In this document: piece by piece, positions 2,905 through 43,523 of the stretch
Position numbering within the stretch: position 1 is the first letter of the stretch
Layout: each line of letters begins with the position of its first letter
NCBI GenBank assembly: GCA_040388575.1
Contig: JAZKBO010000001.1
Location: 74,776 to 130,081 of the forward strand
DNA length: 55,306 nucleotides
Source of the DNA: Patescibacteria group bacterium
Lineage (GTDB): Bacteria; Patescibacteriota; Minisyncoccia; Phycocordibacterales; UBA9973
Direction of reading: 5' to 3'
The notes under the pieces: model-generated
Database searches by the model: none
The model's input: the letters and a program-made list of their open reading frames with translations, nothing else
What the model was told of the DNA's origin: nothing
Position numbers and translations under genes: made by a program

Positions 2905-3102
2905 TTATGCGCGTTGAACGTTCACAGCATTCAATCCCTTTGGAGATTCCTCTGTTTCGAAAGAAACAGCATCACCTTCCTTGAGCTCGTCAAAAGTAAC
3001 GCCTACAAGAGAATTTGAGTGAAAGAATAAATCTTTCTGCAAACCTTCGCCTGTGATAAAGCCGAAACCTTTGTCTGTCAATCTTTTTATTGTACCAGTC
3101 AT
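2905..3102 (-). CDS. cold-shock protein (CspA family)
   Basis: 65 aa with KGFGFI (RNP1-like) and FFH (RNP2-like) motifs. A ~130 nt untranslated region lies upstream. Confidence 0.9.
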   Translation of the reverse strand: MTGTIKRLTDKGFGFITGEGLQKDLFFHSNSLVGVTFDELKEGDAVSFETEESPKGLNAVNVQRA

Positions 3103-3232
3103 TGAGTTTTTTATATTTAGTTAGTAATTACAAATAGATGTACCTAAGAAATCGACTCTTCCTCCACCTCACTTTGTCTTACAAGTATAGCATATTGGGT
3201 ATTAAAAGTCAAGCACTATTTCCTGGCAGTTT

Positions 3233-3646
3233 CTATGGTGTCAAAGGGGCAGGTCTTATCTGCACAGATTCGGCATTGATGCTACCGTCAGTATTTGGAG
3301 TTCCAGTAATGATTACTGTTGTGCCAGTAACAAGGTCGGCAGCGGTGCCATCAACCGACTTCATTATTTTTGTGCTAGGTCCAAAGAAAACTATTTTCGA
3401 GCCGCCGCCTGGGAGGCTTATAGTCATGCTTTTGTCGTCTTTAGAAATAATTTGGCCGAATGTATTGCCTCCCATACCTCGTCCACCACCATTCATCCCA
3501 CCAAATTGAGCTGTCCTATTCATTCCACCCAAGCGCATCATGTTGGCAGCTGTTACCTTACTTTTGCCATAATTCATTCCAATAAAAAACGCTACAACTG
3601 CAACTACTACCAACAAAACAAACGGAACCATTTTTTTATTTTGCAT
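3233..3646 (-). CDS. hypothetical secreted/membrane-anchored Gly-rich protein
   Basis: 137 aa. N-terminal TM/signal (VPFVLLVVVAVVAFFIG), then a GGMN/GGGRGMGG low-complexity stretch. Last gene of the efflux operon. Confidence 0.5.
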   Translation of the reverse strand: MQNKKMVPFVLLVVVAVVAFFIGMNYGKSKVTAANMMRLGGMNRTAQFGGMNGGGRGMGGNTFGQIISKDDKSMTISLPGGGSKIVFFGPSTKIMKSVDGTAADLVTGTTVIITGTPNTDGSINAESVQIRPAPLTP

Positions 3647-3669
3647 AATTCTTTTTTATTAATTAATAA

Positions 3670-4878
3670 TTATTCATAACGCAATGCATCAATAGGATTT
3701 AACATTCCAGCACGCCGGGCAGGGTAGTAGCCGAAGATGATTCCAATACCGGCTGACACACCGAAGGCTAGGAAAATGGACATGAGTGACACCTGAGTCT
3801 CCAAAATACCCAGATGAGTTATCGCAAAACATATCAGCCAGCCCAAAATTATTCCTATGCCGCCACCGATAAAGGTCAGCATTACAGCTTCAACTAAGAA
3901 CTGGGTATTAATATCTTTGCGTTTTGCCCCAATGGCTTTACGGAGCCCAATCTCCTTCGTTCGTTCAGTTACAGTAGTGAGCATCATATTCATAATGCCA
4001 ATGCCGCCCACGAGGAGTGAGATTGATGCAATAGCCGCCAAGACTAGGGTGAAAGTATCTATCACGGTGCTCAGTGTACCCAAAATATCTTCTTGTGAAA
4101 TAATTGAAAAATCTGCTTCCGCCACATTGTGTTGGTTGAGGAGGGCCTCTGTAGCTAGTTCTTTAACATCCGCCATCTGATTTTTATCAGCCACCGAAAC
4201 AGCAATCATAGAAAGGTAGTCATCTCCGGAAAGTATTTTTTGCATTGTAGAAAGCGGCACGAAGATCATGTCGTCTGGTCCAGAAAATCCCGCGCCTCCT
4301 TTAGATGCCAAAAGTCCAACTACCGTAAAGTTAACCTTATTTATTCGAACAGTTTTTCCAAGTGGGTCCTGATCCATAAATAAATCCGTAGCCACTGTCG
4401 CGCCTAGGACTGCTTGTCGGCCAATACTGCGATCATTGGCATCCGAAATAAAAGTTCCTTCTGCCAAGTTTATATTGTGTACTACAGCATAATCAGCCAC
4501 GACGCCCGTGGTGGTGGTATTGGTATTATTGCCCTCGGCAACGATTTGGAACCGTCGGGAGTCTTCCGGCGATACTGCAGCCACGCCGTCTATCGCGCGC
4601 AAGATATCGACGTCCTTATTCTTTAGTGTCTGGGCACTACCTCGCCCCGAGGAAACAATTCCTCGCCCTGGCTGGACTATGCCCGGAAGGATTGTAAGCA
4701 AATTGGAGCCCAGTCCTTCGATGCTCGTCTGAATTGAAACCTTAGCTCCATTACCAATCGAGACCATCGCAATCACTGAAGAAATGCCTATGATAATCCC
4801 CAGCATAGTTAGGCCGGAACGCGCTTTGTTGGCGGAAAGGGATCTATATGTTTCATTGAAAATGTCTCTTATTTTCAT
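3670..4878 (-). CDS. ABC transporter permease, MacB/FtsX family
   Basis: 402 aa: N-terminal TM, a large periplasmic domain, and a C-terminal FtsX-like 3-TM bundle. Its start overlaps the ATPase stop by 4 nt. Confidence 0.9.
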   Translation of the reverse strand: MKIRDIFNETYRSLSANKARSGLTMLGIIIGISSVIAMVSIGNGAKVSIQTSIEGLGSNLLTILPGIVQPGRGIVSSGRGSAQTLKNKDVDILRAIDGVAAVSPEDSRRFQIVAEGNNTNTTTTGVVADYAVVHNINLAEGTFISDANDRSIGRQAVLGATVATDLFMDQDPLGKTVRINKVNFTVVGLLASKGGAGFSGPDDMIFVPLSTMQKILSGDDYLSMIAVSVADKNQMADVKELATEALLNQHNVAEADFSIISQEDILGTLSTVIDTFTLVLAAIASISLLVGGIGIMNMMLTTVTERTKEIGLRKAIGAKRKDINTQFLVEAVMLTFIGGGIGIILGWLICFAITHLGILETQVSLMSIFLAFGVSAGIGIIFGYYPARRAGMLNPIDALRYE

Positions 4879-5582
4879 ATATTTTTTATTATACGTTTCG
4901 TATGAGTAGTTTTATCTTCGATCAGTTTTCCGTCTTTTATGTATAAAATTCTGTCAGCGTGTTCGGCTACGTCTTGTTCGTGTGTAATTAAAATTATTGT
5001 GCGCCCCAACTCTTTATTTAATCTTTGAAATGTACCGATAACTATGTCGCCAGTTTTGGAATCCAAATTTCCTGTTGGTTCGTCCGCTAGTATGAGCGAT
5101 GGGTTATTTACCAAGGCTCTAGCGATTGCCACGCGCTGGATCTGTCCGCCGGATATTTGGTTCGATAAATTATGAAAGTGTCCTTCATCTAGGCCTGCGG
5201 AGTGCAGCGCACTCTTGGCACGGGTTTCTCGCTCTTCCATATTCACCCCAGCATATACCAGGGGGAGCATGACATTACGTAATACTGTAGTTCGTGGGAG
5301 TAGATTAAATGACTGAAATACGAAGCCAATTTTATCTCGGCGGATATCAGCCAGCTCATCATCCGAAAGGGTAGAAACATCTTTACCGTCTAGTAGATAG
5401 GTTCCTGAAGTGGGGCTATCGAGCGCCCCCAGCATATGCATCAAGGTCGATTTACCAGAACCAGATGGCCCCATGATTGCTACAAACTCGCCATCAGCAA
5501 CTGTGAAGGAAACACCGTTCAATGCGTTGAATTCCACATCACCAGTCTTGTAAGTTTTTGTAATATTTTTCAGTGTAATCAT
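4875..5582 (-). CDS. ABC transporter ATP-binding protein (MacB/LolD-like)
   Basis: Walker A GPSGSGKST, signature LSGGQIQR, Walker B LILADEPTGNLD. Confidence 0.9.
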   Translation of the reverse strand: MITLKNITKTYKTGDVEFNALNGVSFTVADGEFVAIMGPSGSGKSTLMHMLGALDSPTSGTYLLDGKDVSTLSDDELADIRRDKIGFVFQSFNLLPRTTVLRNVMLPLVYAGVNMEERETRAKSALHSAGLDEGHFHNLSNQISGGQIQRVAIARALVNNPSLILADEPTGNLDSKTGDIVIGTFQRLNKELGRTIILITHEQDVAEHADRILYIKDGKLIEDKTTHTKRIIKNI

Positions 5583-10394: not shown

Positions 10395-10525
10395 ATTGTG
10401 TGACCTCTTTGCAGAGGTAAATAATTATTAATAAAGTAAAAAATTGACATTCTTTACTCTACGAAATCATCAATACATAATTCATGACTTTGTAGAGTAG
10501 GAAACGTGAGGGGATTGACCCAGCA

Positions 10526-10540
10526 CGTTTCCCGGAAACG
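10526..10540 (-). terminator. palindromic hairpin just downstream of the cassette A ORF
   Basis: CGTTTC-CCG-GAAACG, 11 nt beyond the stop. No T-run, so terminator function is uncertain. Confidence 0.3.
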
Positions 10541-10550
10541 ATGCGAACGC

Positions 10551-11216
10551 TTAGTACCTGATCCAGTTGTGCGTCGCGATGACGCTCACCACCGCAAACG
10601 TACTGTCATGGTCACGAGTGGCCATGATGATCGCAGTGGTGCCGCCGGCGACCGCGCCAGCGATGAGGAAGTTGCGGACCTTGTGCGACTTCGAGGTGGC
10701 GACGGATGGAGTGAAGTCACGGCCATCTTTGCCGTTCTTTCCATCACGACCGTCCTTGCCGTCCTTCCCGTCAATGCCGTCTTTTCCATCCCGGCCGTCA
10801 CGTCCAGCAAGACCAGCAATCATGAGTGGCGCGGGTTTTGGGAACCAGTCAGAGCGTACGGGGTTTCCGCAACCGTAGACCCAGAGGGCCTTTCCCGTTG
10901 CCTTGTCGACCACCACGGGTACGCCAGGGTAGGCGATACAGGTGACGTCCTTGCCGTTGCCAGAACCATAGGTGATCTTCTGATCCGCTGCGTTGATCAC
11001 CAGGGCTTCCGTTTCCGGGTTGATCTGACGGTTCTTGTTCACTGGGTCGGCACCGACATTGCAGCGGTTGATCGAGGCTGCCTGCGCTGCCGGCTTGGTC
11101 TGGTCGAAGCTCACCCCAGCCGTAGCCGAGTCGAACTTGTCGTTGGTTTCCGCCGCCGCCGTCGTGGCGAGGGTCAGGAGCGCGATGGCCACAAGGGCCG
11201 TTAGCATTTTCTTCAT
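10551..11216 (-). CDS. secreted collagen-like repeat protein with C-terminal TM anchor (foreign composition)
   Basis: 221 aa. Sec-type signal MKKMLTALVAIALLTLATTAAA/E, eleven consecutive G-X-Y triplets (GLAGRDGRDGKDGIDGKDGKDGRDGKNGKDGRD), and the hydrophobic segment FLIAGAVAGGTTAIIMA. GGAGG lies 6 nt before the ATG. Confidence 0.75.
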   Translation of the reverse strand: MKKMLTALVAIALLTLATTAAAETNDKFDSATAGVSFDQTKPAAQAASINRCNVGADPVNKNRQINPETEALVINAADQKITYGSGNGKDVTCIAYPGVPVVVDKATGKALWVYGCGNPVRSDWFPKPAPLMIAGLAGRDGRDGKDGIDGKDGKDGRDGKNGKDGRDFTPSVATSKSHKVRNFLIAGAVAGGTTAIIMATRDHDSTFAVVSVIATHNWIRY

Positions 11217-11313
11217 ATGCGGCCTCCTCTAGGCCATGTCAGTGTGCTTTCCCGCCTCTATTGACGAGCAGGGGAGATTGTTGTTACAACCCCACCTGTA
11301 GTTCCTATTTACG

Positions 11314-11341: not shown

Positions 11342-11381
11342 GTACCCCGTAGACAAAACAGGGAGGTATGTTTTTGTGATG

Positions 11382-11453
11382 TGCCCTCACCAGGAATCGA
11401 ACCTGGATCGCAAACTCCGCAAGCTCGCATTCTATCCATTAAACTATGAGGGC
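11382..11453 (-). tRNA. tRNA-Arg, anticodon GCG
   Basis: Manual cloverleaf: acceptor GCCCTCA/TGAGGGC, T-arm CCAGG-TTCGATT-CCTGG, anticodon loop TTGCGGA. 4-nt variable loop and no encoded CCA. Confidence 0.7.
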
Positions 11454-16711: not shown

Positions 16712-16795
16712 GCGCGGGTGGCGAAACTGGTAGACGTACTACCTTGAGGTGGTAGCGCTCGCAAGAGCTTGGGAGTTCGAGTCTCCCCCCGCGCA
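16712..16795 (+). tRNA. tRNA-Leu, anticodon GAG
   Basis: Acceptor GCGCGGG/CCCGCGC, anticodon loop TTGAGGT, long variable arm, T-arm GGGAG-TTCGAGT-CTCCC. TGcTATAAT (hexamer 16698-16703) lies just upstream. Confidence 0.85.
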
Positions 16796-16804
16796 CAAGT
16801 TTAG

Positions 16805-16832: not shown

Positions 16833-16881
16833 TTTACCGGACACGTCTACGGATAGATAATTCATTTGACGGAGGTACACG

Positions 16882-17091
16882 ATGGACCAGCGTACAAGGA
16901 TAGTCGAAAACCAGTGCGCCAAGCACTACGGCACGGCGATTCTGGCCCGCCCGCCCCACCACATCGAGGAGCCCACCACGGCGCCGAAAAGCGTCGCCAC
17001 GGCGGCTGCGAAGAAGCCGACGACCCTCGAGAAGTTCAGCGGTCCGCCCGACCTTCAGCCGATCTCCAGTTCGGATCCGCGATGGAAGTGA
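16882..17091 (+). CDS. hypothetical 69-aa ORF B1 (may be non-coding)
   Basis: GGAGG (16871-16875) lies 6 nt before the ATG. The product is Pro/Ala-rich with no recognisable fold. High GC makes chance ORFs likely. Confidence 0.3.
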   Translation: MDQRTRIVENQCAKHYGTAILARPPHHIEEPTTAPKSVATAAAKKPTTLEKFSGPPDLQPISSSDPRWK

Positions 17092-17291
17092 AGCAGGCGG
17101 CCGCCAAGCAGCTCAACCTACTCGCCGTCGGGGAGCCATCATCATTCACTCCACCGCGCCGACCCACACCTTCACTCCAGACACTCAATCTGCGGCGGGA
17201 TGTGTGTATCGAGCTCGCCCGGCGACGTCGCCGAGCACAAATTGCGGCCCGACTCGCCCTCAAGCGCGCCGAACGCAACAGTCAGTCGTAG
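17082..17291 (+). CDS. hypothetical 69-aa ORF B2 overlapping B1 by 10 nt (may be non-coding)
   Basis: ATG at 17082 sits inside the end of B1 (..GCGATGGAAGTGA..). Very basic C-terminal helix ELARRRRRAQIAARLALKRAER. No independent SD. Confidence 0.2.
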   Translation: MEVKQAAAKQLNLLAVGEPSSFTPPRRPTPSLQTLNLRRDVCIELARRRRRAQIAARLALKRAERNSQS

Positions 17292-17299
17292 TCATCATC

Positions 17300-17340
17300 G
17301 CGCCGGCCGCGGATCTTTTCCAAAAAAGATCCCCCGGCGC
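17300..17340 (+). terminator. 16-bp GC-rich composite stem-loop closing cassette B
   Basis: GCGCCGG/CCGGCGC outer stem and GGATCTTTT/AAAAGATCC inner stem with loop CCAA. No T-run follows. Confidence 0.45.
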
Positions 17341-17351
17341 GAAAACGTTTA

Positions 17352-33986: not shown

Positions 33987-34880
33987 ATGATCAACGCAGA
34001 TCTTTTGAACTATATCAAACAAGCACAGCTCTCTGGTAAATCTATCGAAGTTATCAAACAAGAACTCGCCACCGGCGGCTGGAATGCTGCGGATGTCGCT
34101 GAAGCACTACAAAGTCTTTCCGTTGGAGTTTCAGCGGTGACTCCTGCCATGGCCGCTACTGCTGGAGGTATGGGCATGAAAGCAATAATTACAATTCTGG
34201 TTTTAGTCGTACTCGCTGCAGGCGGCTATTTTGCGTATTCAAAATATAAACAACCAAGCGTCGAAGAAGTAAGTATTAACCAAGAACAAACTATGAATAC
34301 TCCAACACCAACTCCTGTTGCGCAAAACACAGAATCAATTCCTGCTCCGTTTACTTGTAAAGATATATTTACAGAGTCTGACTTTGTAAGAATAACAGGC
34401 AAAGGCGCTGCAGATTACAAAGTGGAAGAAAAAACAAGCGCAGCTGCAAACGCGGGCAATTCAGCCAACCTAACTTGTTCTTACACTAAACCCGATCCTA
34501 GTAAATCTGATCCAATTTCTTTTAACCTAACTGTTATTTGGTATCCAATAAATAACGTGGCGGAAACAGATCTTGAGGTTTCTACCGATGCCTTGGTACA
34601 GAGCGCAAAAAGTATGGCAGCAGGATTTCCAGACAGTGAAGCCAAGACCCAGCAGATGAATATTGCTAAAGTCGCGGTTCCGGGCGTGGGAGCTAAAGCA
34701 TACACACTGCAGAGTGGGAGCATGGGAGGGGGATGGCTCTTTTTTCTCAGCAGTAATAAAAAATATAATGTAATGTTTACGTATCTTGATTTTGCAAATT
34801 TGGGTAAGGCAAATAATGGAGCTTTGACTAAAGAAAAATTAATCGGCCAGACTATCGATGCGCATTTAAGTAAATATTAA
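33987..34880 (+). CDS. hypothetical membrane protein (small helical N-domain, TM, TP-linker, extracellular domain)
   Basis: TGgTATAAT (hexamer 33972-33977) lies 9 nt before ATG 33987; GTG 33981 is also possible. Paralogous TM-linker shared with the next gene. Confidence 0.6.
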   Translation: MINADLLNYIKQAQLSGKSIEVIKQELATGGWNAADVAEALQSLSVGVSAVTPAMAATAGGMGMKAIITILVLVVLAAGGYFAYSKYKQPSVEEVSINQEQTMNTPTPTPVAQNTESIPAPFTCKDIFTESDFVRITGKGAADYKVEEKTSAAANAGNSANLTCSYTKPDPSKSDPISFNLTVIWYPINNVAETDLEVSTDALVQSAKSMAAGFPDSEAKTQQMNIAKVAVPGVGAKAYTLQSGSMGGGWLFFLSSNKKYNVMFTYLDFANLGKANNGALTKEKLIGQTIDAHLSKY

Positions 34881-34902: not shown

Positions 34903-35541
34903 ATGAACTCTAAACTAATCATATTTATCATCGCCTTGCTGGTCATAAGTGGTGGATACTTTGCATATTCAAAATATTACCAACCAAGTGTCGAAAAAAT
35001 AAATATTAACCAAGAACAAGCCATGAATAATACTCCAACACCTACACCCACTTACCCAGCAACTAATAAAAATCCATGTGACACCATAAAAGATCTTGGT
35101 GAAGGGTTTGTTCATCCCGAATATTCTAAAAATGGTGTTAAGGTAGGCCAACCCGAAAATTTCCCTGCCAACCTAATTCCTCCTGGCAGTACCGCGATGG
35201 AATACTACATAAGCTCTGAAAATAAGCAAAGAACTGAAACACTATTTTGTTCCCAAAATAAAGTCCTGGATATTATTGCCAATATGGAAAATACATTACA
35301 ATCCAACTCCTATAAAAAATCTGATCCTTGGCACAAAACAGCCACCGATGCCACATTTCGCTTCAGTGTAGAAGGCACCCATCGTTTTGTTGACGGCGAA
35401 CTTCTTGGGGGAGTGGTTACAATTATGGAAGTTAGGCAAGTACCTTTTGATTCAAATAGTCCCATTGTCGGTGTCTTAATAGATATTATTGTAGATCACC
35501 GATGCATATATGGCACTGGTGGGGTTAATACGTGTAATTAA
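34903..35541 (+). CDS. hypothetical membrane-anchored protein, partial paralog of preceding gene
   Basis: Shares GGYFAYSKY.QPSVE..INQEQ.MN.TPTPTP with the upstream gene (DNA 34951-35049 against 34221-34316). Confidence 0.6.
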   Translation: MNSKLIIFIIALLVISGGYFAYSKYYQPSVEKININQEQAMNNTPTPTPTYPATNKNPCDTIKDLGEGFVHPEYSKNGVKVGQPENFPANLIPPGSTAMEYYISSENKQRTETLFCSQNKVLDIIANMENTLQSNSYKKSDPWHKTATDATFRFSVEGTHRFVDGELLGGVVTIMEVRQVPFDSNSPIVGVLIDIIVDHRCIYGTGGVNTCN

Positions 35542-35818: not shown

Positions 35819-37966
35819 ATGGAAAGAGATTACCCTTTAGAAAAAGTTAGAAATTTTGGAATTATCGCCCACATCGATGCGGGTAAAACTACCACGACCG
35901 AGCGTGTGCTTTTTTATACTGGCGTATCCCACAAAATAGGGGAGGTGCATGATGGGGAAACTACTACCGACTGGATGGAGCAGGAGCGCGAGCGCGGCAT
36001 CACTATTACTTCCGCTGCGGTTACCTGCTTCTGGACACCTACATATGATTTGAAAAATAAAGCCCTCAAGCACCGCTTCAACATCATCGATACTCCAGGA
36101 CACATCGACTTTACCGTAGAGGTGAAGCGTTCTCTTCGCGTACTCGATGGAGCAGTAGTAGTGTTCGACGGCGTGGCTGGAGTAGAACCACAATCTGAAA
36201 CAAACTGGCGCTATGCCGACGAGGCTAAAGTTCCACGCGTATGCTTCATCAACAAGCTCGACCGAACTGGTGCATCTTTCGAGCGTTCCTACAGCACAAT
36301 TCTGGAAAGACTCAACAAAAATGCTGTGCGCATGCAGATACCTATCGGATTAGAAGAGAAGTTCGAAGGTGTGGTGGACGTGCTCCGCATGAAGGCCTAC
36401 TACTTTGAAGGCGAGATGGGTAACACAGTTATCGAAAAGGAAATTCCTGCGGAAATGATGGCAGAGGCACAAAAATACCACAATGAGTTGATTGAAAAGA
36501 TTGTGGAGACCGATGACACCTTGATGACCGAGTACCTAGACGGTATGGTGCCCAATTTTGATACTTTAAAGAAAACTCTACGCAAAGCTGTAATTGATAA
36601 TAAAATCTTCCCAGTTTTTGCTGGTTCCGCTTTAAAGAACAAAGGTGTGCAGCTCGTGCTCGATGCGGTGGTAGATTATCTTCCAGCTCCGACTGACATC
36701 CCACCAATAGAAGGTATCAATCCAGATAACGATGAGCCAGCAGTGCGCCATGCCTCCGACGCAGAGCCTTTTGCAGCACTTGCTTTCAAAGTGGCGACGG
36801 ATCCATTCGTAGGGCAGATCATTTTCTTCCGCGTATATTCTGGAAAGCTTGCAGCTGGAAGTTATATTTACAACCCTCGAACTCGCAACAAGGAGCGTAT
36901 CGGCCGAATTCTACGAATGCACGCCAATGACCGTGAAGAAGTGAAGGAAGTCTTCGCTGGGGAAATCGCAGCTGCAGTGGGCCTTAAAGACACCATTACC
37001 TCGGACACTATTTGCGATGAAAATAATCCTATTGAATTAAACCGCATAGTCTTTCCAGAGCCAGTTATCTCACTGCGCATCGAACCTAAGACTAAGGCTG
37101 ACCAAGAAAAAATGGGTATGGCCCTCAACCGCCTTGCGCAAGAAGACCCAACCTTCAAAGTATCTACTGACCAGGAAACAGGGGAGACGATCATTGCCGG
37201 CATGGGAGAGCTTCACCTTGAAATTATTGTGGACCGCATGAAGCGTGAGTTTACGGTGGAAGCTAATGTGGGTAAACCCCAAGTAGCATACCGAGAGACC
37301 ATCAGTGGTGAAGCGGAAGCGGAAGGCAAATACATCAAGCAGTCTGGCGGACGTGGTAACTATGGCCATGTGAAGATCAAAGTTAAGCCGATGGAAGCAC
37401 TGACGAAAGAAGAGATTGAAGACCTACCGAAAAATACCAAGAGGTATTCTGACTTTGAATTCATCAACAATATCAAGGGAGGTGTTATCCCACAAGAATA
37501 CATTGCTCCTTGTGAAAAGGGCTTTAGGGAAGGACTCGATCGCGGAATCCTTGCAGGATTCAAAATGGTAAATGTTTCCGTAGACCTATGGGACGGAAGT
37601 TACCATGAAGTGGACTCCAACGAAATGGCTTTCAAAATTGCATCTTCAATGGCGGTGCAAGATGCCTGCCGATCTGCCCGCCCAGTAATCCTCGAGCCAA
37701 TGATGAAGGTGGAAGTGGTAACTCCAGAGAAGTTCATGGGTGATGTTACCGGCAACCTTTCTTCAAAGCGTGGACTCATCGAAGGTATGGAGGACCGCGG
37801 TATGAATAAAGTCATGCGCGCTATCGTACCGCTCTCTGAAATGTTCGGCTACATGACCGGCCTACGCTCAATGACTGAAGGAAGAGCATCTTTCACTATG
37901 GAATTCCTACGCTACGATACAGTGCCTAACAACGTAGCGGAAACAATCATCGCTGCGAGAAAATAA
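35819..37966 (+). CDS. fusA: elongation factor G
   Basis: 715 aa with [18 protein letters not shown] and all EF-G domains. Confidence 0.95.
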
Positions 37967-37971
37967 CCTAT

Positions 37972-38000
37972 TTGACTTATCCTTTTTAGGGTGCATAATT
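37972..38000 (+). promoter_or_regulatory. promoter driving cassette C
   Basis: TTGACT (37972-37977), then TGCATAATT (37992-38000). The -10 reads CATAAT or ATAATT with a 16 or 17 nt spacer. Confidence 0.4.
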
Positions 38001-38045
38001 AGATTTTAGGAACCACTCGATCTTCAAATAAGGAGAAACTCGACG

Positions 38046-38513
38046 ATGAAGAATTTTCGCGCGCTTTTCGAAGCGGAACTCGAAGGGACTGACGGCCAGG
38101 CGACGATCATCGGTGCGAGGGAGCTGTTGCCCACCAAGCACATTGACCCTCGTTTCGAAGCCATCCACAAGTCTGGGCCGGCGACACCGCCGACCAAGAT
38201 CCAGGTACAGGAGCTGGCTGTTAACGGAGAGCTCCTTGACCTTCTCCAAGACGTCTCCGCATTCGATACGCTGCCTTTCATGCAAAGCCAGATCGTCCAG
38301 GTTTGTCATCGGCACCCTGACTGGCTTCAGGCAAACGGAATGCCCAACCTCTTCCTTTGCAAGATGGGGGAGGCCAACTCGGACCTGTTTGTGGTCAGCG
38401 CCTTTCTGGACAACTGGAGCCGCTTCTTCTTCATGAGGCGCGAGCTTCATGAAAGGATTCTCTGGCGCGGGCGGCAGTTTCATCTCCGCTTCTTCTTCAA
38501 GGTGAGGCGATAG
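38046..38513 (+). CDS. hypothetical 155-aa cytoplasmic protein of foreign composition
   Basis: AAGGAG (38030-35) lies 10 nt before the ATG. No TM or signal and no family recognised. The odd Arg/Phe-rich C-terminus could reflect a frameshift. Confidence 0.5.
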   Translation: MKNFRALFEAELEGTDGQATIIGARELLPTKHIDPRFEAIHKSGPATPPTKIQVQELAVNGELLDLLQDVSAFDTLPFMQSQIVQVCHRHPDWLQANGMPNLFLCKMGEANSDLFVVSAFLDNWSRFFFMRRELHERILWRGRQFHLRFFFKVRR

Positions 38514-38526
38514 TCGCCCAAAATTA

Positions 38527-38567
38527 GGAGGGAATCAACCCTCCCATCCCCGGACCAAGGTTCGGGG
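38527..38567 (+). terminator. two tandem GC hairpins closing cassette C
   Basis: GGAGGG-AATCAA-CCCTCC (38527-38544) and CCCCGGAC-CAAG-GTTCGGGG (38548-38567). No clear T-run. Confidence 0.4.
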
Positions 38568-38601
38568 ATTACTCATTATATTCAAAGGTAATTATTCGGG
38601 T

Positions 38602-38629
38602 TTGACAATATACTTCAATCTGCTAATAT
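38602..38629 (+). promoter_or_regulatory. promoter of tuf (long ~160 nt leader)
   Basis: TTGACA (38602-38607), 16-nt spacer, TGcTAATAT with the hexamer at 38624-38629. Confidence 0.5.
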
Positions 38630-38794
38630 AACAATAACTGCACTTTTGGCAGTTTTTCTATTGCTTTTTTTGTAAAAATACTAAAAAAGCTAGATATTAT
38701 TAAGGTTTTTAACATCGTTAGTAATTAGGCCTTAGCGACTGGTTCTCGTACGCTGGGTCCTCATTATTAAGCCCGCCCAATTGGCGGAAATTAT

Positions 38795-39985
<1,191 letters not shown>

Positions 39986-42876: not shown

Positions 42877-42904
42877 TTGCTTTATTCTCAATAAAGAATA
42901 GAAT
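42877..42904 (+). promoter_or_regulatory. promoter at left edge of cassette D
   Basis: TTGCTT (42877-42882), 16-nt spacer, TAGAAT (42899-42904). Confidence 0.4.
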
Positions 42905-42910
42905 TATTCA

Positions 42911-43069
42911 CCAGAGGTCCCCATGGAAATATTCCAAGGCGTTGACGATGAAGAGCATCTCACGCGCGACCCGCTCAGTAACTGCTGCGACGCGTATCTG
43001 TATGTTGCAGACTCACGCCGCCGCAAACGCCGAAGCTTCCGACACCATCGGAGCCCGGCGTTTTTTTTT
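42911..43069 (+). ncRNA. candidate ~160-nt GC-rich small transcript (promoter to intrinsic terminator)
   Basis: Bounded by the promoter at 42877-42904 and a strong terminator. The only ORF (42923..) has no stop before the terminator. Local hairpin TGGAA-ATA-TTCCA. No family recognised. Confidence 0.3.
43028..43069 (+). terminator. strong rho-independent terminator inside the rplB-rpsS gap
   Basis: CGCCG/CGGCG (43028-32 / 43056-60) plus TTCCGA/TCGGAG inner stem, 5-nt loop, followed by T9 (43061-43069). Confidence 0.8.
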
Positions 43070-43083
43070 ATTAACACTTTTAC

Positions 43084-43111
43084 TTGCGTAAAAATAAAAG
43101 AAGAATACACT
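43084..43111 (+). promoter_or_regulatory. possible internal promoter of cassette D second unit
   Basis: TTGCGT (43084-89), 16-nt spacer, TACACT (43106-11), in the AT-rich spacer right after the terminator. Confidence 0.3.
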
Positions 43112-43209
43112 TATTCTCAGATCGCAACCCGATCGGAAGGGGGACCGTCACAGAGGCAAGTCTCTATCCACGTTCGGTAAGTTCACAGTCACGTCACTCG
43201 GAGGTTCTC

Positions 43210-43458
43210 ATGCCAAGTCGTTTCAATGGCTGCTCAAGTCGGGATCACGAGGCGCACATGATGAAGGACGCCGCCGCCTTTGGCCGGCGCCCGGATCGTG
43301 TCCGTCATCTGTCGTTGGCGCCCACCACCAGGGTGGTGCCGCGCGAAGCGCCGCTCGTGTCGCTCCGACCGAAGGCTCCGCCGGACGCCGGGCAGGGAAG
43401 CATCAATCTCATGGCCGGGAACAACAGCAGTCGTGCGGCCGTGAGGGGGGTGATCTAA
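43210..43458 (+). CDS. hypothetical 82-aa ORF D2 (may be non-coding)
   Basis: GGAGG (43200-04) lies 5 nt before the ATG. The product is Arg/Pro/Ala-rich without a recognisable fold. Chance ORFs are likely at this GC. Confidence 0.3.
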   Translation: MPSRFNGCSSRDHEAHMMKDAAAFGRRPDRVRHLSLAPTTRVVPREAPLVSLRPKAPPDAGQGSINLMAGNNSSRAAVRGVI

Positions 43459-43523
43459 CTATCTCCCGCAGCGCTAACACCGTTGCGGGTCGCGTTCGAC
43501 CTTGCGTGTTTGCTTCAACATCC

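Follow-up and report, generated by a model that had tools for sequence, protein, structure and literature searches.

A GC-rich island (~38020–38575; 57% GC, range 0.55–0.58) lies between fusA and tuf, the genes for the elongation factors EF-G and EF-Tu, on the 130-kb contig JAZKBO010000001.1 of a Patescibacteria bacterium. Our analysis concerns the single open reading frame (ORF) of this island, which encodes 155 amino acids and is called ORF155 here, and the locus was compared within a 55,306-nucleotide (nt) stretch of the contig (the 55-kb window, GC content ~0.41; positions refer to it unless another locus is named). The first-pass annotation of this DNA had described a discrete foreign cassette of one gene, equipped with a promoter-like site, a Shine–Dalgarno sequence and closing hairpins of its own. 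This description holds, and a check of the sequence places the named features at, or a few nt from, where they had been put (Table 1). The foreign composition of the ORF also stands, although its GC content is 0.566 rather than ~58%. Five promoter-like sites occur in the region, compared with 1.4 ± 1.0 in shuffled sequences, and the two hairpins downstream of ORF155 jointly give z = −4.3, with 0/200 shuffles folding equally well. No terminator was found in the window between fusA and the cassette; in the nearest relative (locus L003) and in a relative from run X5, a hairpin and T-run stand directly 3′ of the fusA stop.

ORF155 is a real and intact coding gene. The GC contents at codon positions 1/2/3 are 0.60/0.37/0.73 in its frame, compared with 0.68/0.37/0.58 for the antisense 165-aa ORF, and the third-position value remains at 0.7–0.9 in each 90-nt segment as far as the stop codon. 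A leave-one-out profile of the protein family described below aligns with residues 12–144 at 69 bits (E = 2e-23), whereas none of 200 shuffles exceeds 1.7 bits and the antisense ORF scores 1.5, in agreement with the earlier choice of the + strand. It had also been suspected that the C-terminus, which looks unnatural, is frameshifted. This is not the case, because the periodicity reaches the stop, the remaining two forward frames are closed across 38380–38513 and the tail aligns with the variable region of the family. The doubled RFFFMRR/RFFFKVRR motif of the tail results instead from an in-frame direct repeat, perfect over 14 nt and spaced 66 nt, with 21/21 nt matching around a 3-nt indel. Consistent with an intact product, the AlphaFold2 (AF2) model reaches a mean confidence (pLDDT) of 88.9, tail included, when the family alignment is supplied (pTM 0.86, alpha+beta fold), compared with 37 from the single sequence.

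The first-pass view that the protein matches no family can be replaced by a positive assignment. An exhaustive phmmer search over 1.84 billion representatives revealed 147 homologous proteins at E ≤ 1e-3 (best 5e-21), 30–40% identical to ORF155 over residues ~10–150 and in a few cases carrying two to three tandem copies. A word-indexed protein search returned only the query itself; the practical lesson is that it missed all relatives and that exhaustive HMMER alone found the homologs. ORF155 has the family invariants G17, Q82 and F103 and keeps D16, T47, E56, L76, Q80, I83, L104, F115 and R148, while V150 and P152 of the family are not kept; at the 14 near-invariant positions, ten residues are identical and three more are conservative substitutions. 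Sequence searches of Pfam, PHROGs, NCBIfam, PADLOC and PDB with ORF155 and with the whole family gave nothing consistent, and tblastn/blastn searches of GenBank phages and PLSDB plasmids gave no match.

Members of the family, whose domain measures ~135 aa, are annotated as hypothetical proteins of Patescibacteria. A member is usually a solitary gene with unrelated housekeeping genes around it and at least one neighbour in the same orientation. Other members were found in mobile contexts, and genuine tailed-phage contigs carry some in their accessory regions, where their GC content is offset from that of the phage. A few have signal peptides, and two long members (P0044 and P0100) are fusions of a J-domain (DnaJ), a beta-rich region, a transmembrane helix and the family domain; if the J-domain lies in the cytoplasm, these two would have their variable domain outside the cell. 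A Kaiserbacteria metagenome-assembled genome has one member between rpsJ and rplC (L054, 5669–6301), and another is found just past map, at the end of the spc operon (L082). The family may prefer the gaps of the ribosomal super-operon. A functional link to translation was rejected as an explanation of these three ribosomal-operon contexts (window, L054 and L082), since two of the three were ascertained via tuf, and they support an insertion-site preference at most.

The nature of the family is revealed by four loci (L099, L100, L102 and L105) in which a family gene is accompanied by an adjacent template repeat (TR), Avd and a reverse transcriptase (RT), the parts of a diversity-generating retroelement (DGR). 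In L099, bAvd and then the RT follow downstream of the family gene, and the final 121 nt of this gene are repeated 417 nt downstream with 80% identity. Mismatches between this variable region (VR) and the TR fall at TR adenines in 16 of 24 cases (16/32 adenines versus 8/89 other bases, Fisher p = 3e-6), and translation of the TR gives the Asn-rich VANVNLNSDGKLKVNVNRFENDNVWNADNRHRVVVP. In L100, L102 and L105, found by a metagenome scan, every mismatch is at a TR adenine (12/12, 11/11, 22/22 and 12/12; 57/57 in total). L100 and L102 come from different samples. Of the 795 nt compared, 19 differ; the VR accounts for 18 of these, and all 18 are at TR adenines, which is live diversification. The single DGR of L100 (TR 2485–2598) serves two flanking family targets (1510–2184 and 4110–4598).

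The same pattern extends over the whole family. The median VR entropy is 3.18 bits at the 15 codons with a TR adenine at position 1 or 2 and 1.34 bits at the other 23 (p = 2.6e-7), and the hypervariable columns coincide with TR AAY codons. Together, the TR/Avd/RT loci, the adenine-specific mismatches and this entropy pattern identify the family as a DGR variable-protein family, which the nucleotide-level proof in four loci serves to define. Residues 114–155 of ORF155 align as the variable-region equivalent, and the apparently unnatural C-terminus corresponds, on this alignment, to that region. An earlier idea that these proteins are polymorphic-toxin immunity proteins or anti-defence morons, which their solitary occurrence, the tandem paralogs and the location of some in phage accessory regions had prompted, is superseded by the DGR evidence. 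In nearly all family loci the VR tail is depleted in adenine (0.11–0.22 versus 0.25–0.40 in the gene body), and hairpins with a (T)CCCYYGGR stem are found 3′ of nearly all family genes, verified DGR targets included. DGR targets need a hairpin with a GC-rich 7–10-bp stem and a 4-nt loop located 4–34 bp past the VR (PMC3240598). Hairpin 2 of the cassette is either the post-VR hairpin typical of the family or a terminator without a proper U-run. DGRs are unusually abundant in Patescibacteria, and DGR clade 2 is restricted to them (Roux et al. 2021, PMC8144416).

Although ORF155 is homologous to the proteins with verified VR/TR pairs, namely those of L099, L100 (two genes), L102 and L105, the parts of a DGR are lacking around it. 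A tblastn search of the window with the L099 RT and Avd gave a best E of 2.1, and no TR-like copy of the ORF155 tail is present in the window. Likewise, the complete assemblies of two runs (X1 and X2) contain no second copy of the tail at an identity of at least 80%, and the VR is identical in both. The tail has an adenine content of 0.15 versus 0.23 in the gene body, and its enrichment in NNC codons is not significant (p = 0.46). The family initiation-of-mutagenic-homing (IMH) sequence at the VR 3′ end, CATCGTGTGGTTGTACCGCAAC, encodes HRVVVPQ and is invariant in the verified targets and near-invariant family-wide (entropy 0.13–0.9 bits). This HRVVVPQL/IMH end is absent from ORF155, which ends FHLRFFFKVRR, and the duplicated RFFFKVRR stands in its place; the duplication may have overwritten the IMH-coding end. 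As TR, RT and IMH were looked for and not found, ORF155 is filed as an uncoupled homolog rather than as a DGR target.

The slot in which the cassette resides is itself variable. EF-Tu comparison places the contig in the Patescibacteria (Paceibacteria-like), with L003 as the nearest relative (89% identity). Spacer alignment shows that the window and L003 share everything from ~38586 onward, that is, the tuf promoter and leader, but are unrelated from the fusA stop to ~38586, a segment in which L003 carries an AT-rich ORF of 91 aa as well as a terminator. The tuf promoter (TTGAC-17-TAnTAT), with a short hairpin and U-run following within a few nt (attenuator-like), is kept in seven relatives. 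Since this promoter and the long leader are conserved in these relatives, they are ancestral and lie outside the cassette, alongside which the first-pass annotation had listed them. The second tuf-leader hairpin (38718–38770) is conserved with L003 only. The synteny check proposed by that annotation shows the same fusA–tuf order in relatives, and across Patescibacteria loci the gap measures 110–2757 nt and holds varied cargo, including a recurrent PhD/YefM-like small ORF, a response regulator with a membrane protein, an ABC transporter and an alanine racemase. The fusA–tuf slot is an insertion hotspot. The small co-oriented ORF found here in many relatives has a PhD/YefM-antitoxin-like N-terminus and an acidic tail and is absent from the window and L003. 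Homologs of ORF155 elsewhere match the GC content of their hosts. The window copy is the only one of foreign composition, and this points to a recent acquisition. We read ORF155 as horizontally acquired, recently imported as a single-gene cassette into this variable slot.

Table 1. Positions of the features at the fusA–tuf locus of the window and of related features in other loci
Locus	Feature	Positions	Strand	Remark
Window	fusA (EF-G)	35819..37966	+	native upstream gene
Window	putative sigma70-like cassette promoter, TTGACT-16 nt-CATAAT	37972..37999	+	10/12 consensus match only
Window	Shine–Dalgarno sequence AAGGAG	38031..38036	+	9 nt ahead of ATG at 38046 (sequence)
Window	ORF155 (155 aa), stand-alone member of an unnamed Patescibacteria/phage family	38046..38513	+	codon periodicity, homologs, profile, AF2
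Window	ORF155 domain body, residues 1–113	38046..38384	+	family alignments A3, A4
Window	ORF155 variable-region-equivalent tail, residues 114–155	38385..38510	+	aligns with VR of bona fide DGR targets
Window	direct repeat copy 1, CCGCTTCTTCTTCA-TGAGGCG	38420..38440	+	in frame, encodes RFFFMRR
Window	direct repeat copy 2, CCGCTTCTTCTTCA[AGG]TGAGGCG	38486..38509	+	encodes RFFFKVRR, at place of family IMH-coding end
Window	hairpin 1, 6-bp GC stem, 6-nt loop	38527..38544	+	−11.1 kcal/mol
Window	hairpin 2, 10-bp GC-rich stem, 4-nt loop CAAG	38546..38569	+	−17.1 kcal/mol; starts 33 nt past stop
Window	native tuf promoter, TTGACA-16 nt-TAATAT	38602..38629	+	invariant TTGAC...TAnTAT in 7 relatives
Window	native tuf leader, ~160 nt	38636..38794	+	5′ hairpin + U-run 38636–38659, hairpin 38718–38770; z = −3.4
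Window	tuf (EF-Tu)	38795..39985	+	native downstream gene
L102	family DGR target	4878–5552
L027	PhD/YefM-like gap ORF	3582–3833
L028	PhD/YefM-like gap ORF	3446–3778
L030	PhD/YefM-like gap ORF	3583–3843
L032	PhD/YefM-like gap ORF	3536–3844
L034	PhD/YefM-like gap ORF	2963–3334
L039	PhD/YefM-like gap ORF	3461–3835
L041	PhD/YefM-like gap ORF	3520–3894
L044	PhD/YefM-like gap ORF	3471–3773

These results suggest an explanation in which a promoter–ORF–hairpin cassette entered a Patescibacteria chromosome at the slot bounded by the fusA stop and the ancestral tuf promoter. The product of the cassette would be an alpha+beta protein of ~150 aa, whose family serves as the variable protein of Patescibacteria-type DGRs in other genomes. 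In such DGR loci the RT copies the TR with adenine errors and overwrites the final ~40 codons, so that a hypervariable ligand-binding surface would form on every second residue along the C-terminal beta-strands. The copy in the window, without RT, Avd or TR and with the conserved IMH-coding end lost, would be uncoupled from this process and its variable region stuck in one state; the tail may look unnatural because it is a frozen variable region. Transcription could start at the cassette promoter and also arise by read-through from fusA, as implied by the lack of an intervening terminator, whereas the two hairpins may insulate the cassette from the tuf promoter. ORF155 might then act as a binding protein of fixed specificity. 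We consider it probable that ORF155 is an orphaned, frozen stand-alone copy in the variable fusA–tuf slot.

Several observations weigh against this reading. The search for RT and TR covered 55 kb of the 130-kb contig, Logan contigs show presence and not absence (depth 4–8x), and DGRs are able to act on remote targets (PMC8144416, PMC5758913). The loop of hairpin 2, CAAG, is outside the GRNA consensus of phage-type DGR targets; the hairpins of verified targets in the ORF155 family also deviate from this consensus. The tail is off-family even at scaffold positions (SDG→NWS, VVV→FFF, P→K), and the gene could thus be in decay and not in a functional frozen state. No RNA-seq run containing the ORF155 sequence was found; the strong expression that the first-pass annotation had predicted from the location of the gene is putative. 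A Foldseek search with the confident ORF155 model gave no significant match in PDB or BFVD, and the binding role is putative.

The scaffold deviations also speak for a view of the cassette as a decaying remnant, in which a transferred DGR-target gene is no longer expressed or of use and simply has not yet gained a stop codon. In addition to the changes at normally invariant scaffold and IMH positions and the local 21-nt duplication, the profile alignment ends at residue 144, the RNA-seq search was negative, and two other high-GC islands of the window (B and D, described below) have broken or absent frames. We nevertheless regard decay as unlikely. The frame remains open over all 155 codons and its periodicity is strong up to the end, and at the near-invariant positions 10/14 residues are identical and three more are conservative substitutions. 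The promoter-like site, the Shine–Dalgarno sequence at ideal spacing and the hairpins are intact, and the AF2 model is confident over the tail. Moreover, three samples, drawn from two studies, have the gene or a diverged allele of it at this position.

The third of these samples bears on a different possibility, that a DGR encoded elsewhere in the genome, outside the 55-kb window, acts on ORF155 as a remote target through a non-canonical IMH, and that the ORF155 tail is still diversifying. In run X3, a soil metagenome from another study, the fusA pieces are ~99% identical to the window but the tail allele has diverged (RITWRGGEF.LRFFF). The family is itself DGR-diversified, most family loci have no RT within 4–6 kb on either side, and remote targets are known (PMC8144416); the adenine-depleted tail and the GC-rich 10-bp hairpin with a 4-nt loop, 33 nt past the ORF155 stop, would also be expected of a target. 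However, the X3 allele carries synonymous as well as non-synonymous changes, and the many synonymous ones point to allelic divergence or replacement and not to adenine mutagenesis. In addition, the VR is identical in X1 and X2, no TR-like copy of at least 80% identity is present in the window or the complete X1/X2 assemblies, and the family-invariant IMH-coding end is missing. We therefore consider active remote diversification improbable. The X3 contigs (window 38482–38574) have one extra A past 38498, which would alter the final residues.

The two remaining explanations concern the reality of the island itself. That the island is a chimera produced by assembly or binning, or is joined to the contig as a contaminant, is suggested by the abrupt GC change at both ends and the metagenome-assembled source, but is effectively refuted and scarcely credible: an independent Logan assembly (run X1) is 100% identical over 37607–38665 with even depth (8.3 versus 6.5 and 9.9 in the flanks), and a second sample (run X2) covers the right junction (38419–38752) with 0 differences. 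The chimeric join that the first-pass annotation had named among its refuting conditions is not present, and both cassette junctions are confirmed as genuine. The other explanation is that ORF155 looks coding by accident and that the island instead encodes a structured non-coding RNA or the antisense 165-aa ORF, as the frequency of structured RNAs in high-GC intergenic islands of AT-rich genomes and the long ORFs on both strands might suggest. It is effectively refuted and has next to no probability, since an Rfam search of the island gave no match at the gathering threshold or at E ≤ 10, the periodicity fits only the + frame, neither the antisense nor the alternative frames gave a match to any family, and with the ORF155 family profile the antisense ORF scores 1.5 bits against 69 for ORF155.

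The orphaned, frozen copy favoured here resembles several known arrangements without coinciding with any of them. The classical str operon of the E. coli type has the order rpsL-rpsG-fusA-tufA. The fusA–tuf order is the same in the window, but tuf in this Patescibacteria clade has its own conserved promoter and a leader of 130–190 nt, and is separated from fusA by the cargo-bearing gap described above. A phage moron is an additional gene that brings its own promoter and terminator, deviates in GC and is inserted into a conserved module, where it separates two of the genes. The cassette is similar in having a promoter, one ORF, hairpins, deviant GC and a position between two conserved genes, but it is located on a bacterial chromosome (str region), with ribosomal/translation genes on both sides and no flanking phage genes. 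Nothing specific on such cassettes was found in the literature.

ORF155 is homologous over the full domain to the verified targets of its family and can thus be compared with known DGR variable proteins (Mtd of Bordetella phage BPP-1, TvpA of Treponema; clade 2, PMC8144416). Like these, it has its variable region at the extreme C-terminus, adenine-depleted and with a GC-rich hairpin after it; unlike these, it has no TR, RT or Avd in the 55 kb or the source assemblies and no IMH-coding end. DGR targets that are remote or orphan (Wu et al. 2018, PMC5758913) are a further parallel, in that a target-family gene lies far from any RT, and remote targets have been noted as undetectable (PMC8144416). 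They keep a TR-matching VR and the IMH, however, whereas the IMH motif of ORF155 is replaced and a TR match was not found. Published VRs were reported as systematically of the C-type lectin (C-Lec) fold (PMC8144416), and the confident ORF155 model has no significant match to any C-type-lectin DGR protein, or to any other structure, in PDB.

What is new is the recognition of this family, missing from Pfam, PHROGs, NCBIfam, PADLOC and PDB, as DGR variable proteins, the description of a single-gene, foreign-composition cassette in the str region without TR, RT or IMH and, more tentatively, a confident model in which no C-type-lectin match can be recognised; DGR variable proteins and remote targets as such were already known. 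An apparent ORFan with a suspicious tail becomes interpretable as a homolog of retroelement-diversified binding proteins and offers a natural example of DGR-target genes spreading and becoming uncoupled. This is of interest because DGRs of Patescibacteria are thought to serve the episymbiotic lifestyle, and the fusA/tuf and other ribosomal-operon gaps are flagged as insertion hotspots in these bacteria. A wider reading, tentative and in our estimate doubtful, is that DGR hypervariation acts here on a non-C-type-lectin beta-sheet scaffold, and/or that target genes are mobilised as self-contained promoter–ORF–hairpin cassettes into gaps of the highly expressed Patescibacteria ribosomal/translation super-operon, with fusA/tuf (window), rpsJ/rplC (L054) and the position after map (L082) as landing sites. 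The mobilised targets would then either be kept as binders of frozen specificity or still depend in trans on a distant DGR whose IMH is non-canonical. A non-C-type-lectin scaffold, if true, would break the reported rule for VRs.

The island with ORF155 (island C) is one of four high-GC islands in the window. That the four are copies of one element was rejected, as they share no repeats and only island C holds a family member. Island A (10480–11300, GC 0.59–0.65) contains an ORF on the − strand (10551–11216) and adjoins tRNA-Arg (11381–11453); the 221-aa product has a signal peptide, collagen-like GKDG repeats and weak PHROG tail-fibre and collagen matches, with a codon periodicity of 0.59/0.49/0.73. 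Island B (16850–17350, GC 0.62–0.66) lies between tRNA-Leu (16712–16796) and msrB. Its highest-GC3 frame has three stops and the listed 141-aa ORF resembles an off-frame Arg-rich artefact; the island may be a broken foreign gene. Island D (42900–43520) occupies the rplB–rpsS gap of the S10 operon; none of its frames shows codon periodicity, and Rfam gave no match. The same gap of L003 holds a different insertion of ambient GC. Upstream of fusA, a 93-nt repeat (34221–34313 and 34951–35043, 81% identical) is shared by two adjacent paralogous genes for small membrane/secreted proteins.

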